A stretch of DNA of 64,000 bases, from the NCBI GenBank assembly GCA_963700285.1, contig CAVOXA010000010.1, positions 1,216,001 to 1,280,000 of the forward strand, read 5' to 3'. Positions within the stretch are counted from its first letter, which is position 1, and every line of letters starts with the position of its first letter. Both the position numbers and the translations under genes were made by a program. Positions 28,993 to 44,155 of this stretch are shown one piece after another. The notes beneath the pieces were generated by a model. It did not search any database. It was not told where the DNA came from and worked only from the letters and a program-made list of their open reading frames with translations. Origin of the DNA: an uncultured Chloroflexia bacterium (GTDB taxonomy: Bacteria > Chloroflexota > Anaerolineae > JAAYZQ01).

Positions 28993-30278
28993 TTGGCGCC
29001 TGTCTTGCACATTCGCCTGCTGGGGGATTGCTCTCTCTGTTATGATGGTGCGCCGGCCGTAACGGAGGTCAATACCCCCCGTCTGCAATCCTTACTCGCC
29101 TATCTCCTCCTGCACCGCGCCGCCCCCCAATCGCGCTCCCACGTTGCCTTCCAGTTCTGGCCCGACTCGACCGAGGCCCAGGCCCACAGCAACCTGCGCA
29201 CGCTGCTGCACCGCCTGCGCCAGGCGCTGCCCGATGCGGACCAGTTCCTATCGGTCGAGGGGCAGACGGTGCAGTGGCGGCAGGATGCGCCCTATACCCT
29301 GGATGTGGCCGGTTTTGAGCAGGCGGTGAGCCGAGCAGAACGGACCGGGGAAGAAGCGGCTCGAAGAGCCGCCTTGGAGCGGGCTATCGAGCTGTATGGC
29401 GGCGAGCTGCTGCCCAGTTGTTACGACGATTGGATCCTGCCCCAGCGGGAGCGGCTGCACCAGGCCTACATCCGGGCCATGGAGCAGTTGATCCGACTGC
29501 TGGAAGAGGAGCGCGAGTACGATCAGGCGCTGCGCTACGCCCAGCGCCTGCTGCGAGACGACCCGCTGCACGAGGCGGGCTACCGGCGGCTGATGCGGCT
29601 GCGGGCCCTGAGCGGCGACCGCGCCGGGGCGCTGCGCGTCTACCACGACTGCGAGTCACATCCTCCAGCGCGAGCTGGGCGTGGAGCCCAGTGCGGCCAC
29701 GCAGCGGGCCTACGAAGAGTTGTTGCAGGCCGAATCCCGGCCCGTAGCTGCCAGCGGGCCCATGCCTGGTGTGTCACCCCTTGTCGGGCGCGAAGAGGAG
29801 TGGACTCGCCTGCAGACTGCCTGGTGGCGGTCGGCCCGTGGGCCGCGCTTCGTTTTACTGCAAGGCGAAGCCGGCATTGGCAAAACGCGACTGGTGGAGG
29901 AGTTGCTCCATTGGGCGAAACGGCAGGGGATCGAGTGCGCCTACGCCCGTAGCTACGCCGCCGAGGGCGAACTGGCCTACGCCCCGGTGACCGCCCTGCT
30001 GCAGGCCCGTCCCCTGCCGCCCCTGGAGGACGTCTGGCTCAGTGAAGTGGCCCGCTTGCTGCCCGAGGTGCTGGCCGAACGGCCGGGCCTGCCGCCGCCA
30101 CAGCCCATGACCGAAGCCTGGCAGCGCCAGCGGCTCTTTCAGGCCCTGGCCCGGGCGGTGCTGGGCAACGGCTCGCCGCCAGAGCCCCTGTTGCTGGCTA
30201 TAGAGGACCTGCAGTGGTGTGACCGCGAGAGCCTGGATTGGCTGCACTACCTGCTGCGATTCGATCCGCGGCGCGCAT
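28993..30278 (+). pseudogene. AfsR/SARP-type regulator copy 1: wHTH + BTAD + start of AAA ATPase, truncated (frameshift ~29655)
   Basis: LHIRLLG, LLAYLLLH, FWPDSTEAQAHSNLRTLL, DPLHEAGYRRLM, GEAGIGKTRL, AIEDLQWCD; breaks off at ~30278. Confidence 0.75.
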
Positions 30279-30280
30279 TA

Positions 30281-33200
30281 CCCAGGCCCACAGCAACCTG
30301 CGCACGCTGCTGCACCGCCTGCGCCAGGCGCTGCCCGATGCGGACCAGTTCATATCGGTCGAGGGACAGACGCTGCAGTGGCGCCAGGAGGCGCCCTACA
30401 CCCTGGATGTGGCCGCTTTTGAGCAGGCAGTGAGCCGAGCAGAACGGACCGGGGAAGAAGCGGCTCGAAGAGCCGCCTTGGAGCGGGCATCGAGCTGTAT
30501 GCGCGGCGAGCTGCTGCCCAGTTGTTACGACGATTGGATCCTGCCCGAGCGGGAGCGGCTGCACCAGGCCTACGTCCGGGCCATGGAGCAGTTGATCCAA
30601 CTGCTGGAAGAGGAACGCGAGTACGATCAGGCGCTGCGCTACGCCCAACGCCTGCTGCGAGACGACCCATTGCACGAGGCGGGCTACCGGCGGCTGATGC
30701 GCCTTCGGGCCTTGAGCGGCGACCGGGCCGGGGCGCTGCGCGTCTACCATGACTGTGTCACCGTCCTCCAGCGCGAACTGGGCGTGGAGCCTAGTCCAGC
30801 CACCCAGCGGGCCTACGAGCGGGTGCTGCGTGTCGAGCCTGGCCCCGAATCCGAAACAAGGACAACCCCTATGGTCTCGCCGCTGGTGGGGCGGGAAGAC
30901 GGAGTGGGCCGGGTTGCGGAGCGCCTGGCGGCGGTCGGCTCGCGGGCCGCGCTTTGCGCTGGTGCTGGGCGAGGCAGGCATCGGCAAGACGCGGCTGGTG
31001 GAGGAACTGCTGCATTGGGCACAGCGGCGGGGGATCGAGTGCGCCTACGCCCGCTGCTACGCCGCCGAGGGCGAGCTGGCCTACGCCCCGGTGTCCGTCC
31101 TGCTGAGGGCCCGGCCCCTGCCAGCCCTGGACGACGTCTGGCTCAGCGAGGTGGCCCGCCTGCTGCCCGAGGTGCTGGGCGAGCGGCCGGACCTGCCCGC
31201 TCCCCAGCCCATGACCGAGAGATGGCAGCGCCTGCGGTTGTTCGAGGCCCTGGCCAGGGCTGTGCTGAGAGAGGGACAGCCAACCCTGCTGGTCATCGAC
31301 GACCTGCACTGGTGTGATCCGGAAACGCTGGACTGGCTGCATTTCTTGTTGCGCTTTGATGTGCGAGCACGGTTGCTGGTGGTGGGCACCTGCCGGCCGG
31401 AGGAGCTGGACGAGGACTGCCCCTTTGCCGCCGCGCTGCCCGTGCTGCACCGTGACGTGCGGCTGACCGAGATCAAAGTGGGCCCGCTGAATAATGAAGA
31501 GACGGCGGCCCTGGCCTCCAACGTGGCCCGGGAGGAACTGGATCCGGCGGCAGCGGGAAATCTCTACCGAGAGACGGAAGGCAACCCCCTCTTCGTCGTC
31601 GAAACGGTGCGGGCGGCTCTGCGCAGTGAAGGGCGGGGGCTGATCCTTGGAGATGGCGAACTGGAGGACGGGCAGCCAGCACTTCGCGAGCGAGGTCTTG
31701 CCCCCACGGGTGCAGGCGGTGCTGGCCACGCGCCTGGCGCAGCTCTCGCCTCCGGCCCGCGAGCTGGCTGGGCTGGCGGCCATCATCGGCCGGGCTTTTA
31801 CCGTCCCCGTGCTGCAGGCGGCGGGCAACGGGGACGAGGATGCCCTGGTGCGCGGGCTGGACGAACTGTGGCAGCGGCGCATCGTGCGCGAGCGGGGCGT
31901 CGACGCCTACGACTTTTCCCACGACAAGCTGCGGGAGGCGGCCTACGACGCCTTGAGCCCGGCCCGGCGCAGATTGCTCCACCGCCAGGTGGCCCGGGTC
32001 CTGGAGACCACCTACGCCTCGGACCCGGATGCCGTCGCCCGGCGGCTGGCGGTCCACTATGAGCGGGCAGGCCTGGCGGAGAAGGCGGTTCCCTGCTACC
32101 TGCGGGCCGGTCGAGGCGGCCAACCGGATCTTTGCCAGCGACGAGGCCGAGGCCTCCTTCCGGCGGGGACTGGTCCTGCTGGCAGGAGGATCCTGGTCCC
32201 CGATCTCAGGAAGCCTGGCGTCGGGAGATGGCGGCCGGGCTCTATGAGGGCCTGGGTGACGCACTGAGGGTGGTCCGGGCTGATGAGGCATGGAAGGCCT
32301 ACCAGGACGCGCTCGCAGGCTACTGGCGAGGAAGAGCGGCTGGCACGGGCGCGTCTCCAGCGCAAGATTGGCTTCAACTGGGTGGGGCAGGGGCAGTTCG
32401 ACCGGGCCGTGCAAGCCTTCGATCTGGCCGAAGTCTCTCCTGGGCCAGGAACCATTCCAGCCTATTGCCAATTGGTGGCAAGAATGGGGGGACGTACAGG
32501 GTCATCGGTTGCACGCCTACTACTGTATGGGCCGCTGGCGCGAGATGGCCCGAGTGTTGGACGAAGCTGCGGCCGACCGTGGAACAATATGGAACAGTCC
32601 GGCTTCGTGGCTTCTATCTTTGGCAACCGCGTCGATCATGGCCATGAGGCGGGATCGCTAGTCATCTCTGACGAGACCCTGGCTGATGCCCGGGCTGGCT
32701 GGCGACAACACTGGAGCTGGGGATCGATTCTGGATCGAGTGGTCCCACTACCAGTTGGGTTGGCTCCTCGTGCTGCGTGGCGAATTTGAGGAAGCCGAGG
32801 AATACTTGCTCAAGGGCCTAACCATGGTCAAGCAGACGCGGAATCTGTGGGTGGAGACCTACATGTTGAACTGGCTAGCCGTGCTCTGGCGCAAGCGCGG
32901 GCAGGTACGGGAAGCACGCCGCTACGCCGAGCAAGGTCTGATGACGGCACCTACTGGTGCACCAACTGGAGCAGGTGGCTCTAGCCCAGGCAAATCTGGC
33001 CTGGGTCGCCTGGCGCGAAGGGGACATGGACGAGGCGCAGACCCTGGCCCAGGCTGCGCTGGACTCGTGGCAGCGATCCCAATTGGTCCACGCCTTCCAC
33101 TGGACGGGGCGCTGGCCGCTGTTGGCCATGGCCCTGGACGCGGACAGGCTCTCGGAGGCCCTGGATCACGCGCGGGCGATGCTGGATCCCATGCAGCAGA

Positions 33201-33342
33201 AGCTGCCCCGGCCCATGGAATCTGCCCTGGAAGGCGGCCATTCAGGCCGGTGAGGCGGGCCAGCCGGAAGTGGTTCGAGCATGGCTCCAGCAGGCCGTCG
33301 AGGTGGCCCAGGAGGCAGGGGTACTCTGGTAGCAGCTCATGA
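30281..33342 (+). CDS. AfsR/SARP-type STAND regulator copy 2: BTAD + AAA ATPase + TPR-like repeats (lacks extreme N-terminus; multiple frameshifts)
   Basis: Restarts at QAHSNLRTLL; GEAGIGKTRL, DDLHWCD, ETEGNPLFVVE, YDFSHDKLREAAY; helical repeats in pieces to ~33340. Confidence 0.75.
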
Positions 33343-33996: not shown

Positions 33997-35322
33997 CTAC
34001 AAGCTTAACCGCCCCGACCCCTTGCAGACGGGGCAGTTCAGGCCGCCCAGGACCTTGCCGTCGCCACCGCAGAGGGGGCAGCCAATGCCCGACTGCTTGC
34101 CGCTGCTGGCTTGCACAGGCTTGGAGGCTGAGGGCGGCGCGGCCTGCTGGGCCGTCTTGCCTTTCTGCTGCTCGCTCTGTCCAAAGAGCATCCGCACAAA
34201 GGTCACCAGCGCCGTGCCCAGGATCTCGCCCAGGGTGGGACTCCAGCGCTGGACCGTCTCAAAGAACTTGCTGCCCGTGGGCGCCAGCCGGTCCAGCTCG
34301 ATCTTGAGCTGGCTGGCCGAGGGACGTCGCCGCGGGTCAGGATCCAAGCAGCGGTTCACGATTCCGACCACCGCCGGACTGAGGTCGGGCCGCAGCTCAG
34401 AGAGCGGCTGAAAGGTCGCGAAGGAACGCAACAGCTCCATGTCCAGCTCGGGGAAGGCCGTAAAGCGGTCGCGGGGATCCCGCGCCGTGAGCAGGTGGTG
34501 CATGGTCGCGCCCAGGGCATAGATGTCCGACCGGGTGGAGGGCTGCATCTGCCACTGCTCCAAAGGGGTATAGCCGGGCGTGCCGGCGGCCACGGTCTTG
34601 CCCCCGGCGACCATCACCCGTGCCCCGCTGCTGACGGCGGCCCGGGCCAGGCCAAAGTCCACCAGCCATATCCGCTCCTCAGGATCGATGATGATGTTGG
34701 CTGGCTTGATATCGCGGTGGACGACCGGCTCGGGCTTGCGGCTGTGGAGATAGGTCAGCGCGCCCACAACTTCTGTGGCGCAAGAGACGACTTCTGCCTC
34801 CGAAAGGGGGCGCTTGAGCCGTTCCAGCCGCCGCTCGAGGCTTTCGCCCTCGATGTACTTCATCACCAGGTACTGGTCCAGGCCCTCGACGAAATAGCCA
34901 TACACCTCCGGGATGCGGGGATGGCCGGGATGGTTGAGCCGGGCCAGCACCTCGGCCTCGCGCTTGAAATCCTCCTCCGCTTTGCGCCGTTCGCTCTGCG
35001 TGGCGAAAAAGGGGCGCATCTGCTTGACCACGCACAATCGGCCAAAGAGTTCCTCGTCCTTGGCCAGGTAGACGGCGCCCATGCCCCCCTGTCCCAACTG
35101 GCCCATGATCTGGTAGCGGCCGCCCTGAAGCGACTTGCCTGTGGGCAAGGGAGTGGTTCCCCCATCTTCGCTCGGAGCATTTTCCCGGGATTGTTGCTCG
35201 CCAGCCGGTAGGACGCTATCGCTGGCTCTCTGCAGACCGGCGGCCGCGAATCGCACGCCGCACTTGGTGCAGAATCGCGCCTTGGGATCCGCGGGCGCCC
35301 CACACTGCGGACAGTTAGCCAT
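33997..35322 (-). CDS. Hanks-type Ser/Thr kinase with N-terminal zinc ribbon and C-terminal DnaJ-type CxxCxGxG pair
   Basis: CPQCG..FCTKCG; LGQGGMGAVY, HRDIKPAN, DFG, GTPGY; CPLCGGDG and CPVCKGSG. Confidence 0.93.
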   Translation of the reverse strand: MANCPQCGAPADPKARFCTKCGVRFAAAGLQRASDSVLPAGEQQSRENAPSEDGGTTPLPTGKSLQGGRYQIMGQLGQGGMGAVYLAKDEELFGRLCVVKQMRPFFATQSERRKAEEDFKREAEVLARLNHPGHPRIPEVYGYFVEGLDQYLVMKYIEGESLERRLERLKRPLSEAEVVSCATEVVGALTYLHSRKPEPVVHRDIKPANIIIDPEERIWLVDFGLARAAVSSGARVMVAGGKTVAAGTPGYTPLEQWQMQPSTRSDIYALGATMHHLLTARDPRDRFTAFPELDMELLRSFATFQPLSELRPDLSPAVVGIVNRCLDPDPRRRPSASQLKIELDRLAPTGSKFFETVQRWSPTLGEILGTALVTFVRMLFGQSEQQKGKTAQQAAPPSASKPVQASSGKQSGIGCPLCGGDGKVLGGLNCPVCKGSGRLSL

Positions 35323-36160
35323 GGCGCTCCTCCACCCGCACCAGCACAACGGTGATATTGTCCTCGCCGCCGGCCTCGTTGGCCGCGTCCACCAACCGGC
35401 GGCAGATCTGGGACGGAGAGCCGCCGCCAGTCAAAAACTCTGCCAGCCAGGCTATTGGCTGGACCATGTCCCACAACCCGTCCGAACAGAGCAGCAACGC
35501 ATCGCCTGGGTACAGTGCAAAAGAGGGATAGATATCCACCTCCAGGTCAGGCTTGAGGCCCAGGCAGCGGTAGAGAACGTTGCGGTGGGGATGGCTTTGA
35601 ACTTCTGCTGGTGTGATCCTGCCCTGCTTGAGCAGCGCCCCTGGCACCGAGTGGTCCTCGGTCAGTTGGCGCAGCCCGCCGTCGCGCCACAGGTAGGCCC
35701 GGCTGTCTCCCACGTGGGCCACGGTAGCCTGGCCGTCCTCCACGACAGCCAGCGTCAGCGTGGTCCCCATGTCCCCGGCCTCTCCCGGGTGGGTACGCGC
35801 ATAGCCCAACAGCACCTGATTGGCCCGTTCCACCGCGTGTTCCAGCAATCGGGCGCGATCGGTCTCCTCCAGACGCACGGTGAACCCGCTGCCCACGGCG
35901 GCCAAGGCTTCGGCATCCAGGCGCCGCGTGGCCGAGGGGTCTTGGGGGCGAAAGAGCGGCGCCAGTTCCCGCTTGAGGGTTTGAACGGTCCACTCGCTGG
36001 CCACCTCGCCTGCCAGGTGGCCGCCCATGCCGTCTGCCACGACAAAGAGGCCGAGAGGCTCCTCGTCGGAAGCCTGGACGACCCGGTAGTAGAAGCGATC
36101 CTCATTCAGTTCTCGCTCGCGGCCAACGTCCGTCAGCCCGGCGACAGAAAGCCAAGTCAT
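35315..36160 (-). CDS. PP2C-family Ser/Thr phosphatase (PrpC/PstP-like)
   Basis: TDVGRERELNED, VADGMGGH, HVGDSRAY, LCSDGL, GGEDNIT. Confidence 0.95.
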   Translation of the reverse strand: MTWLSVAGLTDVGRERELNEDRFYYRVVQASDEEPLGLFVVADGMGGHLAGEVASEWTVQTLKRELAPLFRPQDPSATRRLDAEALAAVGSGFTVRLEETDRARLLEHAVERANQVLLGYARTHPGEAGDMGTTLTLAVVEDGQATVAHVGDSRAYLWRDGGLRQLTEDHSVPGALLKQGRITPAEVQSHPHRNVLYRCLGLKPDLEVDIYPSFALYPGDALLLCSDGLWDMVQPIAWLAEFLTGGGSPSQICRRLVDAANEAGGEDNITVVLVRVEERHG

Positions 36161-36203
36161 AGATGCTACCTTTTGCCAACCCTTGCCCCCTTCGTCGGGG
36201 CGA

Positions 36204-38033
36204 TCAGCCAAACAAACCACTCTTCACACGGAGCCTGACCTCTACCCGCTGGCCCTGCCCGCCGTCGAGCGTAAAGGTCAGGGCGGCTTGCTGTTTCCGC
36301 CCCTGGATCTTGGCCATACGCCCGACCAATTCTACGCTCTGCCGGACGCCAGGTTGCAGGCCAAACTGCTCCGGCTTGACCAGCAGCCACGCCGGAGCGC
36401 CTACGACCCGGCACTGGGCCGCGGCCCGGCTGATGTTGGTCACCGTCACGGTCCTCCGGGGGGTGCTCAACGCTCCCCGGGACACGCGGCCAAAGTCCAC
36501 GATCACAGGTTCAACGCGGATGGCTGCCGTGGTGACGGTGATCTGCACCGACAGGACTTTGGGTGCACCCCCCTCGGGTTCCAGGGTGACGGCAGCCAGG
36601 TGAGCCTGGTTTGGAGCAAGCCCCGTGGTGTCGATCTCGACCAGCACCCGGGCAGCCTGGCCCGGCGGGCAGCCGAACCTGTCGCTGCCTACCTTGAGCC
36701 AGGGCTGGTTGCTCCAAACTTCGCCGCGCAGGTAACCCCCGCCCAGATTGCTGATCTCGATCTGTTGCGGAATCCTCTGGCCCACGCCCACTTGTGGAAG
36801 CCGCAGGATCTCTGTACTCAGTTGCAGCACCCCCGGTGGCAGGGCGGAGGGATCGAGTTGCCGGATAAAGGTGTCCAGGGCGGCATCGGGGTCTTGGGGC
36901 CACTGCACCACCGCTGCCTCCGCTGCCTGGGCGGCTGCCGCATCGTGCAGCGTCCCGCGCAACCAACGGGCCAAGGTCCCATCCTGGAGGATGCTGGCCG
37001 CATAGCGCCAGTGCTCGACCGCCAGGGCCAGGAGGCTGGCGCGGCTGTTGGCCGCATCGCCGTCGGGAAAGGTCAGCGCCCGCAAGGGGGCGTTTCGACC
37101 GCCCACATAACCCTCTAATCGCTGGCGGAACTGGGCTGCTGTCAGGCGCTTGTCGATCTCTTCAGCCAGCGCCGCGCGCAGAATGCCAGCCAGGGCCTGA
37201 GGCAGTGCGGAAAGCTGCGGGTATTGGAAAGGATGATCGCGGGGATCGTCGTCGGTAAGCAGGTGGTAGGCCGTGGCGGCCAGGGAGTAGACATCGGAAC
37301 GGGGTTCCGACTGGCCCCGGTAGAGTTCCGGCGCGGCATAGCCCACGGTGCCGTAGAGGCTGTCCCTGTCGCCATCAGGCTGCCCGGCCGAGTGCAAATA
37401 GCGGGTCTTGGCTGTGCCAAAGTCCACCAGCACCGCCCGCCCGCTGTGCTCGTCGATGATGATGTTGCCCGGCTTGATGTCGTTGTGGATGACGGGCGGC
37501 TGGCGGCCGGCCAGATACTCCAGGACCTTGCAGATCTCGCTGGTATAGTGCAATACCTGTTCCGCCGGGGTAGGACCCCCAGTGATGAGCTGGCCTGTGG
37601 CGCTGTCCTCTCGGGTCAGGCCCTTGCGCAGGTCAGGCCCTTCGATATACTCCATCACCAGGTAGTTGTGCCCGCCCTCGGAGAAAAAGGCGTACAGGTC
37701 GGGCACCCCCGGGTGTTTCAGATCGCCCAGGGTGCGGGCCTCGGCCTCGAAGCGCTGGTCGGCCTTCTGTCGCGCCGCGGCGTCGGAGGGGTCGAAATAG
37801 TCAATGACCTCCTTGATCACGGCCAGCCGGTCGAAGGCTTTGGTCTGGGCCACGAGCCACACGGCGCCCATGCCCCCCTTGCCCAGGGGGCGCACAACGC
37901 GATAGCTGCCGCCGTCCAGCAATTGTCCGGGCTGGAGTGGGGCAGCAGCGGTGGCCAGCGGCGTCTGGCACGAGGCGCAGTAGCGCGCGCCGGGCCGGTT
38001 CACACGCCCGCAATTGGGACAGGTCACGCTCAA
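36204..38033 (-). CDS. Hanks-type Ser/Thr kinase with zinc ribbon and C-terminal BACON/Ig-like domains (TTG start after AAGGAG)
   Basis: CPNCG..YCASC; LGKGGMGAVW, HNDIKPGN, DFG, GTVGYAAPE; beta-rich repeats with PWL/AWL motifs. Confidence 0.9.
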   Translation of the reverse strand: MSVTCPNCGRVNRPGARYCASCQTPLATAAAPLQPGQLLDGGSYRVVRPLGKGGMGAVWLVAQTKAFDRLAVIKEVIDYFDPSDAAARQKADQRFEAEARTLGDLKHPGVPDLYAFFSEGGHNYLVMEYIEGPDLRKGLTREDSATGQLITGGPTPAEQVLHYTSEICKVLEYLAGRQPPVIHNDIKPGNIIIDEHSGRAVLVDFGTAKTRYLHSAGQPDGDRDSLYGTVGYAAPELYRGQSEPRSDVYSLAATAYHLLTDDDPRDHPFQYPQLSALPQALAGILRAALAEEIDKRLTAAQFRQRLEGYVGGRNAPLRALTFPDGDAANSRASLLALAVEHWRYAASILQDGTLARWLRGTLHDAAAAQAAEAAVVQWPQDPDAALDTFIRQLDPSALPPGVLQLSTEILRLPQVGVGQRIPQQIEISNLGGGYLRGEVWSNQPWLKVGSDRFGCPPGQAARVLVEIDTTGLAPNQAHLAAVTLEPEGGAPKVLSVQITVTTAAIRVEPVIVDFGRVSRGALSTPRRTVTVTNISRAAAQCRVVGAPAWLLVKPEQFGLQPGVRQSVELVGRMAKIQGRKQQAALTFTLDGGQGQRVEVRLRVKSGLFG

Positions 38034-38112
38034 TACCTGCTCCTTTGCCACGCCAGGTCGATGGCGAACATGGTGCTCCTTTTCCAAGATTTCACGCACG
38101 AATTCGCGACCC

Positions 38113-38141
38113 ATTATAGCCCGGCCCGGGCGATTTGGCAA
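38113..38141 (-). promoter_or_regulatory. Sigma70 promoter of the kinase-phosphatase-kinase operon
   Basis: TTGCCA-17 nt-TATAAT. Confidence 0.7.
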
Positions 38142-38287
38142 AGCGCTTGCAGGATGTAGGGTGCGATGGATCCCGTATCAATGATCAGGGACGACGCACC
38201 ATAGCGACAGATGAAGGATGCTCTTACACAGAATCGCGCAGAGGAGAGAGGTCGACAGAGGGGAGAATCACACCGATCTCAGTCCAT

Positions 38288-38323
38288 AAAAAAACTGCGG
38301 CGGGCCTCAAAACCCACCGCAGT
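38288..38323 (-). terminator. Rho-independent terminator after the small protein gene
   Basis: ACTGCGGTGGG...CCCGCCGCAGT followed by a T6 run on the minus strand. Confidence 0.85.
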
Positions 38324-38343
38324 CCGGTCTCCATGCTTCCGAA

Positions 38344-38490
38344 TCAGCTAAAGCGCGCCAACAGCCCCTTCAGAGTCCAATGCGAACCTTGGTTCTTCCT
38401 GTAGAGCGCTGCCTTGCGGGCGTCTTCTGATCGGCGAACCCGTAGCTCGGTCTCTATCCTCGTTGCATCCATATACATCCAGTTGGTCAT
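38344..38490 (-). CDS. 48-aa small protein MTNWMYMDATRIETELRVRRSEDARKAALYRKNQGSHWTLKGLLARFS, under c-di-AMP riboswitch control
   Basis: AGGAGG 6 nt before ATG; only SD-led ORF seen between the riboswitch and the terminator; below the ORF-track cutoff. Confidence 0.8.
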   Translation of the reverse strand: MTNWMYMDATRIETELRVRRSEDARKAALYRKNQGSHWTLKGLLARFS

Positions 38491-38555
38491 TGTGTACCTC
38501 CTCGTCTTGAACGGTGGGTATATGGTTTACCCAGCCTGTGAGGTACCCTTGCACG

Positions 38556-38593
38556 AAAAAGAAGGGCACCCAATCTAATATCGGATGACCTTC
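38556..38593 (-). terminator. Riboswitch expression-platform terminator
   Basis: GAAGGTCATCCGAT-ATTAG-ATTGGGTGCCCTTC-TTTTT immediately 3' of the aptamer. Confidence 0.75.
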
Positions 38594-38597
38594 TCCC

Positions 38598-38706
38598 ACG
38601 CCTACGGGGTTAGCTGACGGGCTCGGGCCGAAGAAGATGGCCCTGCGGATAAGACTACCGGTTCGCCCCCTGACTTGGATCCCCCGCTGTATGTGCATTC
38701 GGCGGT
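38598..38706 (-). ncRNA. Cyclic di-AMP riboswitch (ydaO/yuaA class)
   Basis: Minus strand CGCCGAAT...CGGGGGATCCA...GGGGCGAAC...GCAGGGCC...GGCCCGAGCCCGTCAGCTAACCCCGTAGGC matches the ydaO consensus blocks. Confidence 0.92.
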
Positions 38707-38733
38707 ATCAACTATGCAGTTGTTACAGCAGTC

Positions 38734-38762
38734 CTTGTACCATAGGTTGCAGGGTCTGTCAA
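38734..38762 (-). promoter_or_regulatory. Promoter of the riboswitch transcript
   Basis: TTGACA-17 nt-TACAAG with TG extension. Confidence 0.6.
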
Positions 38763-38845
38763 GCTCGGACACCAGAGTGACTAGATTTGACGCGCTCAAT
38801 GCGAACAGCGTAGACGGCTGGAGTTTGTAGAACATTTGAGCGACT

Positions 38846-38874
38846 TTGACGGAGTAGCCATCCCGTGTTAGAAT
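38846..38874 (+). promoter_or_regulatory. Sigma70 promoter for the SH3-lhr operon (probably leaderless)
   Basis: TTGACG-17 nt-TAGAAT; ATG is 7 nt downstream. Confidence 0.65.
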
Positions 38875-38880
38875 GGAGCG

Positions 38881-39288
38881 ATGGACAAGGGACGACAGGG
38901 GAATTGCGAAGAGCCACAGAGTGACAGCCGGCGCATGTGCAAGGTGGTCACCGGCTACCGGTCGGCCTACCCTGAACCCTTTGTAGTGCAGGCAGGAGAA
39001 TCCTTGACCGCCGGCGAAAGGGAGAGCGAGTGGCCCGGCTGGATATGGTGCACGAATCGGGAGGGCGAGAGTCGATGGGTACCGGAAACCTACGTGCAGA
39101 GGCAGGGTGAGACGTGCATCGCCCTCCGCGACTATGACGCCACCGAGCTGACCGTCCGGCCCGGCCAAGAGATCATCCCCGGCGAAGAGGCGAGCGGCTG
39201 GATCTGGTGCACAGATCGAGAGGGACAAAGCGGCTGGGTGCCAGCAGAGTACCTGGTCTGCAATCCAGCCGCGGAGCATAACGAATGA
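38881..39288 (+). CDS. Tandem SH3-domain protein
   Basis: Two repeats WIWCTNREGESRWVP / WIWCTDREGQSGWVP; ALRDYDATEL. Confidence 0.85.
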   Translation: MDKGRQGNCEEPQSDSRRMCKVVTGYRSAYPEPFVVQAGESLTAGERESEWPGWIWCTNREGESRWVPETYVQRQGETCIALRDYDATELTVRPGQEIIPGEEASGWIWCTDREGQSGWVPAEYLVCNPAAEHNE

Positions 39289-42200
39289 CGAATGATGGAC
39301 CACGAATGACCAACAACGAAACTAGTTCTCCCCTGGACGCCTTTCTGCCAGCCGTACAAACCTGGTTCTACGAGACCTTTGGCGAGCCCACGCCGCCCCA
39401 GGCTATGGGCTGGCCGGCCATCCAGCGCGGCGAGCACACCCTGATCCTGTCGCCCACCGGGTCGGGCAAGACGCTGGCCGCTTTCCTGTGGGGCATCGAC
39501 CAATTGTACCGCGAGACCTTGGAGCAAGAAAGCCAGGAAACAGGCGAAAGCCGTGAGGAGGGGGTACGCCTGCTCTACGTGTCGCCGCTGAAGGCGCTGA
39601 ACAACGACGTGGAGCGCAACCTGCGCGCGCCGCTGGCCGGCATCCGCCGCGTGGCCGAGGAGCAGGGCTCACACCTGCCCCGCCTGTCGGTGCTGGTCCG
39701 CACCGGCGACACCCCCCAATCGGTCCGGCGGCAGATGGTCAAGCACCCGCCCCACATTCTGATCACCACACCCGAGTCACTGTACCTGATCCTGACCAGT
39801 CCCGTGGCCCGCGAGATGTTTCGCACTGTGCGGACCCTGATCGTGGACGAGATCCACACCCTGGTCGGCAACAAGCGCGGCGTGCACCTGGCCGTCTCCC
39901 TGGAGCGCGTCGTCGAGCTGGCCGGGCGTCCCATCCAGCGCATCGGCCTCTCGGCCACCCAGCGCCCGCTGGATGAGGTTGCCCGCTTTCTGGGCGGCTA
40001 CGAGTCCCAGGTCAACGCAGAACGCGGTACGCCGTCCGGCGGCCTCGGGGATCCCGTCCCCCGGCCCGTCACCATCGTCGACGCCGGCATGGTCAAACCG
40101 ATGGACCTGAAGGTCATCACCGCCGTGGAGGATTTCAGCGACCTGCCCGGCGGCAGCATCTGGCCGGCCATCATCCCCCAGGTGATGGACCTCATCGAGG
40201 CCCACCGCACGACGCTCGTCTTTGCCAACAGCCGCCGCCAGGCCGAGCGCGCCGCCGACCGGCTCAACGACCTGTACCTGGCCCGACAGGCGGGGCGGGC
40301 CGGCGGCCCCGAGGCAATGATGGAAGGCGGCGCCGTCAAGGGCCTCGGCATCCAGGGCACCGGCGCCGCCGGCGGGCCCTTCCGCGCCCACCACGGCAGC
40401 GTCAGCCGCGAGGCGCGCCTGCAACTGGAGCAGGCGCTGAAGGACGGGCCGGCTGCCGGCGCTGGTGGGCACCTCGTCGCTGGAGCTGGGCATCGACATC
40501 GGCGCCGTGGACCTGGTCGTGCAGCTCCAGTCGCCCAAGGGGGTGGCCCGGGGCCTGCAGCGGGTGGGACGCTCCGGCCACCTGGTGGGCCAGACCAGCG
40601 CGGGCCGCTTTTTCCCCACCCACCGCGAGGACCTGCTCGAGATCGGCGGCCATCGCCCGGGCCATGCTCGAGGGCGACGTGGAGCCGACCTACGCGCCTC
40701 AGAACAGCCTCGATGTGCTGGCCCAACAGATCGTGGCCATGGTCAGCGTGCAGGACTGGGACGTGCCGGCCCTGCTGGACCTGATGCGCCGCGCCTACCC
40801 CTACCACAAGCTGACGCTCCGAGCTCTACCGCGCCGTGCTGGACATGCTGACGGGCCGCTATCCCAGCACCGCCTTCCGCGAGCTGCGGCCGCGCATCGC
40901 CTGGGACCGGGTCCACGACCGGCTCACGGCCCTGCCCGGCAGCCGCCTGCTGGCCATCCGCAACGGCGGCACCATCCCCGACCGGGGCACTTTTGCCGCC
41001 TATCTGCCCGACCGCAAGACGCGGCTGGGCGAACTGGACGAGGAGTTTGTCTTCGAGACGCGTCCCGGCGACGTGTTCACCCTGGGGGCCAGCACCTGGC
41101 GCGTGCAGGAGGTCACCGACGACCGGGTCATCGTCACCCCGGCGCCCGGCTACCTGCCGCGCATGCCCTTCTGGAAGGGGGACGCGCCCCGGCGGGACTA
41201 TCACCTGGGCGAGATCTATGGCCGCTTCCGCCGCGAGCTGGCCGAGCGCATAGCGCAAGGGACCAGGGAGCGGATGGCAGCGGACGGGGCGCACGAGGTC
41301 GTGGACGAAGGGCTTTCGAAGCAGAGGATGCCCAGGCGGAAGCCTGCATTACAGACTGGCTCCAGGAAGACTATCGTCTCGACATCCACTCGGCGCGGAA
41401 CGCGGTCCGCTACGTGGCCCGCCAGATGGACGTACTGGGCACCATCTCGTCCGACCGGACCGTCATCGCCGAGATGTTCACCGATCCCCTGGGCGACCTG
41501 CGGCTGGTGATCCACTCCTGCTTTGGCGCCCGGGTGAACAGCCCCTGGGCGCTGGCCCTGTCCCAGGCCTTTCGCGAGGCCATGGGCCGACCCGGCGCGC
41601 TGGGACCCAGGCCCGAGGTCATGGTCAGCGACGATGGCATCCTCTTCCGCTTCCTGGAGACCGACCAGGAACCGCCCCTGGACCTGATCCGCGAGATGGG
41701 GCCGGCCGAGGCCCGGGAGCGGCTCCTGGTCGAGCTGCCCAACTCGGCCGTGTTTGGCGCCCAGTTTCGCATGAACGCCGCCCGCGCCCTGCTGCTGCCC
41801 GCCGCCAAAGGCGCCCAGAAACGCACGCCTTTCTGGCTGCAGCGCCTGCGGGCCAAGGACCTGCTGTCGGTGGCCAAGGGGTTTGAGGATTTCCCCATCG
41901 TCGCCGAGACCTACCGCGATTGCCTGCGCGACGTGCTGGACCTGGCACACCTGGAGGAGGTACTGCGCGGCATCCAGGGCGGCGAGATCGAGGTGGTGAT
42001 CAACGAGACGATGGTGCCCAGCCCCGTGGCCGGCAGCCTGCTCTACGACATGATCGCCAAGTACATGTACGAGTGGGACCAGCCCAAGGCCGAGCGCCAG
42101 ATGCAGGCCCTGATGGTGGGCCGCGAGCTGCTGTCCCAGCTCCTGGACGACGCCTCGGCGAGGGCTCGCTGCCCGACCTGCTGCGTCCGGAGGCGGTGCG

Positions 42201-44155
42201 CGACGTGGACGCCCGCCTGCAGTACCTGGCCGACGGCAGCCGGGCCCGCACGCCCGAGGAACTGGCCACCATCTTTCTGGCCCTGGGTGACCTGTCGGCC
42301 GAGGAGGCGGCCGCCCGCAGCGACGGCGATGGCGCGGCCTGGGTCGAGGACCTGGCAGCCGAGGGCCGCCTCGCTGCCTCTGGATCTAGCCGGCGACCGC
42401 CGCTACGTCCTGCCGGAGCAGGCGGACGCCTACCGGGCAGCCTTTGGCCCCGCGTCGCCCGAAGGCATGGTGTCAGACGAATCCCGCCGGGCCATCCTGC
42501 GCCGCGTCCTGAGCACCCACGGCCCGCTGACCCGCGGCTGGCTCCTGGCCCGCTATCCCTGGCCGCCCGAGTGGCTCGACGCCGCCCTGGAGGCCCTCGT
42601 CGAAAACGGCGAGGTCGTGACCGGCCAAATCACGCCCAGAGATCCGTCCGGTCCCCAAATTGCCGGCACAGTGGCGAACGAAGCTGAAGCAGTCCGAGCC
42701 CGGATCCCCGGCCCCCAGAATATTGCGACCGCCGCAACCTGGAGCGCATCCACCGCCAGACACTGGCACTGCTGCGCAAAGAGGTCGAGCCGGTGTCCAT
42801 CTATGCCTACGCCGATTTCCTGGCCCGCTGGCAGCACCTCCATCCCGCCGAGCGGCTGTCCGGGCCCGGGGCACTGGTCCGCCTGCTGCAGCAGATGCGC
42901 GGCGTGCCAGCCCCAGGGCTCATCTGGGAGCGGGACCTGCTGCCCTTGCGCCTGGAGGCCTTTGACGCCAGGCGAGCTGGAGGATCTGTGCGGGCAAGGC
43001 GACGTGGTCTGGGTCGGCTCCGGAGGCAAGGACCCGCGACGGGCCCGGGTACGTTTTCTCTTCCGCGGCGAGGGCAACCTGTTTCTGCCTGCCGAGCCGG
43101 ATGAACCCGATCTATCGCCCCCCGCCGCCCAGGTGCTGGCCTTCCTCAGGTCGGAGGGGGCCTGTTTCTTTGCCGACCTGGAAGCGGGGACCGACCTGTC
43201 TAGCAACGAGCTTGAGCGCGGCCCTGGTCGAGCTGGTCATGGCTAGCCTGGTGACCAACGACTCGCTCCAGGCGCTGCGGCAGGTACTGGCCTGGAGCGA
43301 GCTGAGGAGCTTGCGCCCGGCGCAAGCCCCTCAGCTCGCTGGAGGCCGAGCTGTCCGCCTGGCGCAAGACCTCGCCACCCGTTTTGGGAGCGCGCGACCC
43401 GCCCCAGCCGGGCGCGGATCTGCAGCGCGCCCAGCGCACCGCCGGCCGCCGCGTGGAACGGGCGACGGCGCCCCGCTGGCCCGGTCGCTGGAGCCTGGTG
43501 CACCGCATCGGCGTCTGGGGCAGGGAAGTGCCCTTCGAGGAGCGGATCGAGCGCCAGGCGCGGCAGTTGCTGCAGTGCTACGGCATCGTCACCCGGCAGA
43601 GCCTGGAGGGCGACCCCGAGGGCGGGCTGGGATTGGCGCGCGCTCTACCCCCAGTTCCAGTTGATGGAGATGCGGGGCGAGGTACGGCGCGGCTACTTTG
43701 TGCAGGGCCTGCCCGGCGTGCAGTTCGCCCTGCCCGAGGCGGTGGAGCGCCTGCGCGACTGGACTCGCCCCGATGCGGCGGATATCGAGGAACTCGTGCT
43801 GCTCAACGCCAGCGATCCGGCCAACCTCTTTGGCCCGGCCCTGCCGGGCGAGCCGGAGGTGGAGCACGACCCGGCCCGCTTCCTGCGCATCCCGGGCAAC
43901 TATGTCGTGCTGCTCCGCGGCCGGCCGGTGCTGCTGCTGGAAACCGGCGGCGAGCGGCTGACGGTGCTGCCTGGCCATGCGGGCGGCGCGCTCAAGCAGG
44001 CGCTCAAGGTGGCCGTCGAGCACGCGGGCCGCTGGCAGCGGCGCCTGACCCTGAGCGAGTGGAACGGCCAGCCGATCCTGGAGAACCCCCTGGCCCCGCT
44101 GTTGGAAGAAGTGGGCTTCCGCCGCGAGGCACTGGTCTATGTCTGGGATGGATGA
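39285..44155 (+). CDS. lhr: Lhr-family large SF2 helicase (multiple frameshifts)
   Basis: [54 protein letters not shown]; C-terminal [23 protein letters not shown]. Confidence 0.9.

Follow-up and report, generated by a model that had tools for sequence, protein, structure and literature searches.

A c-di-AMP riboswitch standing before a single ORF of 48 codons raises the questions of whether the ORF is a gene, in which direction the switch acts and what the product might do. Here we consider such a locus on the minus strand of a 64,000-nucleotide stretch of an uncultured Chloroflexia genome (contig CAVOXA010000010.1), which as a whole we call the window. The sequence-only reading had described a promoter, an aptamer, two terminators, an AGGAGG and the ORF as one monocistronic unit, and all of these parts are present on the minus strand at the positions assigned to them. 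The account that we favour, and consider reasonably likely, is that of an ON riboswitch for c-di-AMP controlling a conserved 48-aa protein, a product likely to act on a membrane transporter.

The unit begins with a sigma-70-type promoter with an extended -10 TG (38734..38762), composed of TTGACA at 38762-38757, a 17-nt spacer and TG-n-TACAAG at 38739-38734. Its TTGACA is invariant across 12 of 12 aligned family loci; the site is absent from the output of a consensus promoter scan because its -10 hexamer lacks the final T. The RF00379 aptamer follows at 38584..38714, and its P7 loop CUUCUUC (38630..38636), complementary to 38596-38590, is the predicted 5' strand of a pseudoknot. The predicted 3' strand, GGAGAAG (38590..38596), serves by folding as the 5' side of the leader terminator's base as well, and so forms the switching overlap. 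This intrinsic terminator (38556..38597) consists of an upper stem, a conserved 1x1 mismatch, two G-C pairs and the tract UUCUUUUU, its hairpin spanning 38597-38557 with a tract reading TTCTTTTT. Between it and the gene lies what we call the relay strand, AAGGGUACCUC (38540..38550), whose 5' part faces the terminator 3' arm and whose 3' part faces the ribosome site. The latter (38494..38502) comprises the Shine-Dalgarno AGGAGG, at 38502-38497, and further bases that the relay strand would pair; 6 nt then lead to the ATG at 38490. The ORF (38344..38490) runs for 48 codons to a TGA ending at 38344 and, by sequence, homologs and selection, encodes a basic two-helix protein of a 42-54-aa family. 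A closing intrinsic terminator (38284..38325), with a hairpin of 15 pairs at 38325-38292 and a T run, ends the unit.

Behind the closing terminator lies a kinase - PP2C phosphatase - kinase operon (33997-38141, minus strand), in which a zinc ribbon starts both kinases, and which has a promoter-like site of its own at 38141-38113 (11/12 matches). This arrangement gives no support to the earlier suggestion that the peptide acts on the adjacent kinase operon; the operon adjoins the peptide in the same-genus ortholog as well, and was matched at none of the 62 other peptide loci searched, of which only 13 have at least 900 nt downstream. The gap from the kinase promoter to the gene for the zinc-ribbon Ser/Thr kinase holds an ORF of 13 codons (38030-38071, minus strand) that has a good ribosome site. 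A 135-aa protein with two SH3 domains is encoded divergently from the riboswitch (38881-39288, plus strand) and is found upstream in L153 too. Regulator-ATPase genes and an Lhr-like helicase gene (29681-33342 and 39285-44155, plus strand) are broken across several frames, which suggests assembly indels.

The identity of the riboswitch was examined with the RF00379 covariance model, which matched at full length (model positions 1-134) with 84.1 bits and an E value of 4e-18, above the gathering score of 38, in agreement with the class originally proposed. Complementarity between the P7 loop and the 3' strand amounts to 7-9 bp in the window and a mean of 7.2 bp over 63 peptide loci. The genome contains one DAC gene (150 bits, with a CdaA N-terminal domain), and its presence suggests that the host makes c-di-AMP. 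There are two RF00379 matches in the genome, both upstream of homologous ORFs (36% identity, E 1.3e-5), so that the peptide family forms the entire c-di-AMP riboswitch regulon of this genome (2/2). The second unit (G000:C10:2050423-2050805; L002:1500-1890) joins a riboswitch to a 50-aa paralog in the same promoter, terminator and relay layout, and is flanked by genes that we take to be purB-like and glycosyltransferase-like.

Of the 23 genomes of the family, the riboswitch was present in 14, in 16 copies; 13 of these stand upstream of the peptide, 12 of them intact and 1 frameshifted, and the remaining 3 stand upstream of a PstS-like gene. The frameshifted gene (L017, genome G020) has an intact near-copy in L158, and the shift could reflect misassembly. 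Searching with a 33-letter pattern drawn from the 3' end of the riboswitch yielded 45 genome and 101 metagenome stretches, all 45 of the former from Chloroflexota and mostly Anaerolineae by their record titles; pattern matches and earlier loci together made 160 rows and 122 distinct loci. The cargo of these was the peptide in 64, an ABC transporter in 27, an MFS-like transporter in 18, an ORF-less CU-rich hairpin in 4, something else in 6 and cut off in 3, counts that are not independent because the pattern contains the overlap strand and the loci are related. The ABC label reflects Pfam ABC_membrane found for examples, and the MFS label is our presumption from the sequence of L051. Peptide scores of at least 15 bits were obtained in 64 of the 122 loci and in 0 of 1700 shuffles. 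The riboswitch-peptide linkage on which the sequence-only reading depended is thus borne out, by conserved homologs at these loci and by the paralog under the second riboswitch of the genome.

Protein searches placed the family in 66 clusters at 90% identity and 37 at 50% identity. Among 401 genomes of the class, 28 have a peptide match at E <=0.01, and of 20 loci scanned in those 28 genomes 2 have the riboswitch and 18 are without it. About a dozen of the 18 are small ORFs that have only the N-terminal helix motif in common, several of them beside regulators; the riboswitch-linked peptides are therefore probably one branch of a wider unnamed group. Riboswitch-free ORFs of 46-89 aa with the same N-terminal helix motif (L265-L283) are often divergent from, or beside, regulators. 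In this genome, a profile of such look-alikes placed only the paralog above shuffles, and an HH-align match of that profile to the family (97.7%) was discounted as circular, since the look-alike seeds came from the family profile.

At most loci the peptide gene stands alone. A downstream terminator was found at 31 of 53 peptide loci by a strict test run without a control; a first test gave 20 of 55 peptide loci against 11 of 38 controls, with no separation. Other arrangements occur. In one lineage the peptide gene runs into what is presumably an amidohydrolase-like gene, L106 holds two riboswitch-peptide units in tandem, and in L101 a second family-like ORF follows the first behind a promoter-like site. 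A different small ORF comes after the peptide in L076, L130, L136, L147 and L154 (58 aa in L076 and L136).

Sequence comparison shows the ORF to be a genuine small protein-coding gene under purifying selection. Substitutions number 171, 132 and 243 at the three codon positions, the third being highest, and 22 disjoint pairs pooled give a dN/dS of 0.42, the coding-type conservation that a gene of this kind was expected to have; dN/dS of the window against L153 is 0.14, and against the same-genus ortholog there are 10 synonymous and 7 non-synonymous codons. Of 63 distinct peptides, 59 measure 47-54 aa and 4 measure 42 aa, with ATG as the start codon in 59 and GTG in 4. Conserved and basic, the protein matches no Pfam or NCBIfam family (scattered hits among 70 members all have E above 0.003) and no fitting PDB family (best E 0.063), and it can fairly be called, as before, an undescribed small protein under a c-di-AMP riboswitch. 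The description "unannotated" holds in part: those relatives that bear a name are called "hypothetical protein", but the exact protein is already in a public protein collection. In the Atlas, unnamed clusters at 0.87 offer a lead only.

AlphaFold2 predicts helices at residues 3-35 and 37-47 with a pLDDT of 69. The conserved positions 8, 11, 19, 21, 22 and 25 mostly share one helix face, and net charge across the family averages about +4. A conserved hydrophobic tail is present in 59 of 63 members, the 4 without it being those of 42 aa; its amphipathic moment has a family mean of 0.57 and a window value of 0.31. Of the earlier portrait of a basic, helical peptide with an amphipathic tail, the basic and helical parts agree with these results, and the tail in the window is modestly amphipathic.

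Two other explanations of the ORF bear on this evidence. That it is the truncation remnant of a longer gene is extremely unlikely: the N-terminal helix motif does also open a 251-aa membrane protein at L283, but the stop position is constant throughout the family, the closing terminators counted above follow the ORF, and the two longer forms that a search recovered among its best 7990 candidates both keep the same C-terminus and differ in starting further upstream, their frame extending across the riboswitch. Conserved length and selection thus largely refute the truncation that the earlier reading had named as its own weak point. The RNA itself could be the working output, as an sRNA or a dual-function RNA in which the ORF is incidental, and the platform does head ORF-less CU-rich hairpin RNAs at 4 of 122 loci, family members share little protein identity, and the L017 copy is frameshifted. 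We regard this as improbable, though less so than truncation, since the excess of third-position changes, the pooled dN/dS, the 47-54 aa kept in 59 of 63 members and a conserved ribosome site whose pairing strand covaries with it all argue for a translated product.

The direction of the switch turns on the strand GGAGAAG. According to PMC9337991, an aptamer that overlaps its terminator is predicted to be ON and one that stands apart OFF, both having been confirmed in vitro; PMC11963983 shows the P7-loop pseudoknot to be the ligand-sensitive regulatory element of the class. In our locus the lowest G-C pair of the terminator draws on the pseudoknot strand, as do the pairs with the U tract; all of these lie past the 1x1 mismatch, which is conserved in 59 of 63 peptide loci. 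The terminator of a canonical OFF switch lies apart from the aptamer, whereas the bottom G-C pair here starts inside the pseudoknot strand or where that strand ends. Because a ligand-stabilised pseudoknot strand doubles as the terminator base, the model predicts an ON switch, and we consider it probable that the peptide is expressed at high c-di-AMP; the earlier statement that it is made when c-di-AMP is low is probably wrong, as the shared strand predicts the opposite. Without ligand, GGAGAAG would probably zip into the terminator base and transcription would stop; with c-di-AMP present, the pseudoknot would, with similar probability, keep GGAGAAG, leaving the hairpin open beside the U tract so that polymerase reads through.

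Comparison across loci is consistent with this layout. In 63 of 63 peptide loci, selected by a pattern that includes the strand itself, 5-8 bases of the pseudoknot 3' strand are paired in the terminator fold, and the overlap was also present in 4 of 4 peptide loci of an Rfam-selected sample. Blocking the pseudoknot strand weakens the folded terminator: in the window it goes from -19.2 to -7.4 kcal/mol, and the mean over 63 loci goes from -17.1 to -8.2 kcal/mol. Within the U tract, C is found at 21 of the 161 positions that face G and at 8 of the 429 that face A, an enrichment that is expected if the long hairpin forms. Since earlier automatic terminator finders were blind to the overlapping type, we measured the distance from P1 instead, over 63 Rfam-selected loci (10 without a call, 7 of unassigned cargo excluded): the bottom G-C pair of the terminator lies 9-12 nt from P1 at 4 of 4 peptide and 9 of 9 ABC exporter loci, and at least 18 nt away (detached) in 26 of 32 loci with other cargos, including nucleotidyltransferase, PstS, amino-acid permease, P-type ATPase, DarA and LCP, with cargo labels scanned for examples and otherwise given by likeness, and with the placement off for some loci (by 3 nt for L209 and the window itself). 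Several detached terminators hold the complement of the P1 3' strand.

Ensemble folding, in a model that leaves out pseudoknots and kinetics, gave results that hinge on a single assumption, the number of U free to pair. With 1-3 U free, the terminator base in the window is closed at 0.79-0.99 without ligand and at 0.30 with the aptamer held, and of 58 peptide loci 36-47 favour ON and 5-12 OFF; with no U free the same test reverses, 0 of 58 favouring ON and 32 OFF. The whole leader folds no better than its shuffles (z -0.94).

The relay strand suggests a second layer of control. Its pairing with the 3' arm of the terminator beats that of shuffles at 48 of 63 peptide, 16 of 25 ABC and 0 of 18 MFS loci. 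The 3' half of the relay strand matches the ribosome site as GUACCUC/GAGGUAC in the window and as GCGCCUC/GAGGUGC in the same-genus ortholog, a U-A to C-G compensatory double change, and among the 13 loci with GAGGC in the ribosome site, 12 have G as the partner base. From this pairing it follows that a folded terminator means a blocked ribosome site and a captured arm a free one. Once the RNA is full length, the relay strand would, somewhat more probably than not, catch the terminator arm that has been freed, and would in doing so release the ribosome site. By folding, the ribosome site of the window opens from 0.14 to 0.41, but the overall gain is small, with a mean of 0.31 rising to 0.33 (15 up, 10 down of 64), against 0-4 up and 17-25 down when spacers are shuffled. 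The relay couples the transcription and translation layers and does not fix the direction of the switch.

Transcription and read-through of the unit have a modest sign in RNA libraries. Sixteen runs hold part of the stretch, 15 of them recorded as RNA, and in 4 of 4 runs examined contigs with 0 differences cover 38329-38658, with no contig elsewhere in 37700-39300 in the same four runs; this very sequence had selected the runs, the strand is unassignable at a depth of 2-5, and DNA carry-over is possible. Contigs bridge the leader terminator in 3 of the 4 runs, and those of four studies end at 38329-38338, just before the second hairpin. The paralog region played no part in choosing the runs, and its uncovered parts carry no weight: among the pieces listed for the 19.9 kb around the paralog, cover is sparse overall, with one contig on the paralog ORF (X1, among five near-identical pieces) and nothing in X2.

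What might the protein do? The small proteins SgrT, MgtS and AcrZ, which regulate transporters, and tails that target the membrane, MinD's for one, are likewise shorter than 55 aa and helical, with an amphipathic or hydrophobic C-terminal segment; no homology between them and the peptide was found, and the resemblance is one of anatomy only. We know of no SgrT/MgtS/AcrZ-type regulator under a c-di-AMP riboswitch. The simplest role for a trans-acting product made at high c-di-AMP would be to damp uptake; a regulator of transporters would suit both the size and the tail of the peptide, and action on a transporter is a plausible guess. As a tentative proposal, less likely than not in its particulars, the C-terminal LxxLLxxF/L helix would hold the protein at the membrane, the long N-terminal helix face (D8, K/R11, R19, A21, E22, R25) would damp a solute importer, and the damping would occur at high c-di-AMP and hence high turgor. 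Close orthologs of the ON-type ABC exporter (best 28%) and of the MFS protein are lacking in this genome, so neither is an obvious target. The peptide is a likely new output of the c-di-AMP signal.

Both the direction of the switch and the target could be otherwise. An OFF switch, in which an antiterminator breaks the hairpin without ligand, ligand restores the upper stem and the peptide is made at low c-di-AMP, has the precedent of the class in PMC11963983, PMC9960051 and PMC6488665. It is also favoured by the upper stem (about 0.91 with the aptamer held, 0.58-0.74 free), by base closure when no U may pair, and by the paralog L002, which folds an alternative terminator-breaking structure without ligand. 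At the 18 MFS loci with the same overlap the stem stays formed (0.99) with the aptamer held, a result that we count against ON. Even so, we think the OFF reading rather unlikely, as no conserved antiterminator was found (only 1-2 of 58 peptide loci have a P7-strand candidate above 0.5, and the window has none, although the paralog folds one), the stem with the aptamer held stops up to three C short of the U tract, and detached-terminator controls, which differ in layout, do act as OFF in the same kind of fold test (9 rise and 2 fall of 26). If the switch is ON, the peptide might instead feed back on a soluble or signalling protein, such as the single CdaA, DarA or a metabolic enzyme, in the manner of IF17. 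The genome has one DAC and one DarA, most family loci inspected have no long same-strand gene directly after cdaA, the peptide is basic, helical and Arg-conserved, and a ligand-ON riboswitch before an enzyme inhibitor has a precedent in PMC6212724. Against such feedback, all 23 genomes of the family have DAC and 20 of them DarA, so that neither tracks the peptide, the hydrophobic tail points to a membrane or a hydrophobic groove, and known inhibitors showed no sequence match in Pfam, NCBIfam or PDB; we hold it to be unlikely, a shade more so than the OFF switch.

ABC exporters stand behind the overlapping, predicted-ON platform at L013, L020, L202, L204, L213, L224, L234, L235 and L236 and at 27 pattern loci, and most of them carry some 180 aa of additional domain at the N-terminus. 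At L051:1575-3008 and 17 loci like it, the platform comes without the mismatch and relay strand and precedes an MFS-like transporter whose N-terminus is extended by a long stretch rich in Arg and Trp. At L087, L089, L111, L112 and L176 the same platform is followed by a CU-rich stretch and a hairpin, with no ORF. DarA genes (PF06153), some two-domain, lie behind c-di-AMP riboswitches in other Anaerolineae (L194, L200, L214, L218), and PstS-like phosphate-binding genes behind a c-di-AMP riboswitch with a detached terminator (L005, L014, L021, L022). According to PMC10636490, importers are inhibited and exporters stimulated by c-di-AMP; the ON layout with ABC exporters and the detached layout with uptake and osmolyte genes match this import-off, export-on logic, which the ON platform, if true, would write into RNA. 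We lean slightly towards the view that Anaerolineae evolved a natural ON c-di-AMP riboswitch, by pseudoknot-terminator contest and relay, for an "efflux and shut-down" regulon of ABC exporters, MFS proteins, small RNAs and ~50-aa effectors, with the OFF form kept for uptake and osmolyte genes. The peptide family would then be a new candidate c-di-AMP effector in an abundant, mostly uncultured class.

Known members of the RF00379 class (kimA and ktrAB of B. subtilis, kdp of B. thuringiensis, a tandem in Dehalobacter, Thermoanaerobacter, and nlpC of C. glutamicum) share with this locus the aptamer, the P7-loop pseudoknot and a leader terminator. They are OFF switches that work by a detached terminator with an antiterminator (PMC9337991) or by a pseudoknot hiding the ribosome site (PMC11963983), whereas here the pseudoknot strand is the terminator base, ON is predicted and the cargo is a lone 48-aa protein. 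All natural c-di-AMP switches described in PMC11963983, PMC9960051, PMC6488665 and PMC9337991 are OFF, and the literature consulted gave neither a natural ON example nor this protein, although the primary papers on the class and their supplements may hold ON switches; a keyword search found nothing on c-di-AMP riboswitches in Anaerolineae. The fluoride riboswitch of B. cereus and the Na+ riboswitch, both transcriptional ON switches (bioRxiv 10.1101/2023.12.05.570056; PMC9337991), are alike in that the aptamer overlaps the terminator and ligand prevents completion of the hairpin; they differ in ligand and aptamer, and the overlap in our locus consists of one G-C pair and U-tract pairs behind a conserved mismatch. 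The cyanobacterial glutamine riboswitch-gifB system (PMC6212724) is similarly ligand-ON before a small protein, IF17, that acts by protein-protein contact and closes the glutamine loop, but it has another ligand and no sequence match to our unit was found. In the engineered ON-riboCdA sensor of PMC11963983 a stem-loop likewise contends with the pseudoknot, and ligand leads through the pseudoknot to expression. That device is artificial and translational only, whereas the present arrangement is natural and combines a terminator with a ribosome-site relay. By the same account an ON sensor for c-di-AMP previously had to be engineered; the natural platform, if truly ON, would be a ready biosensor part.
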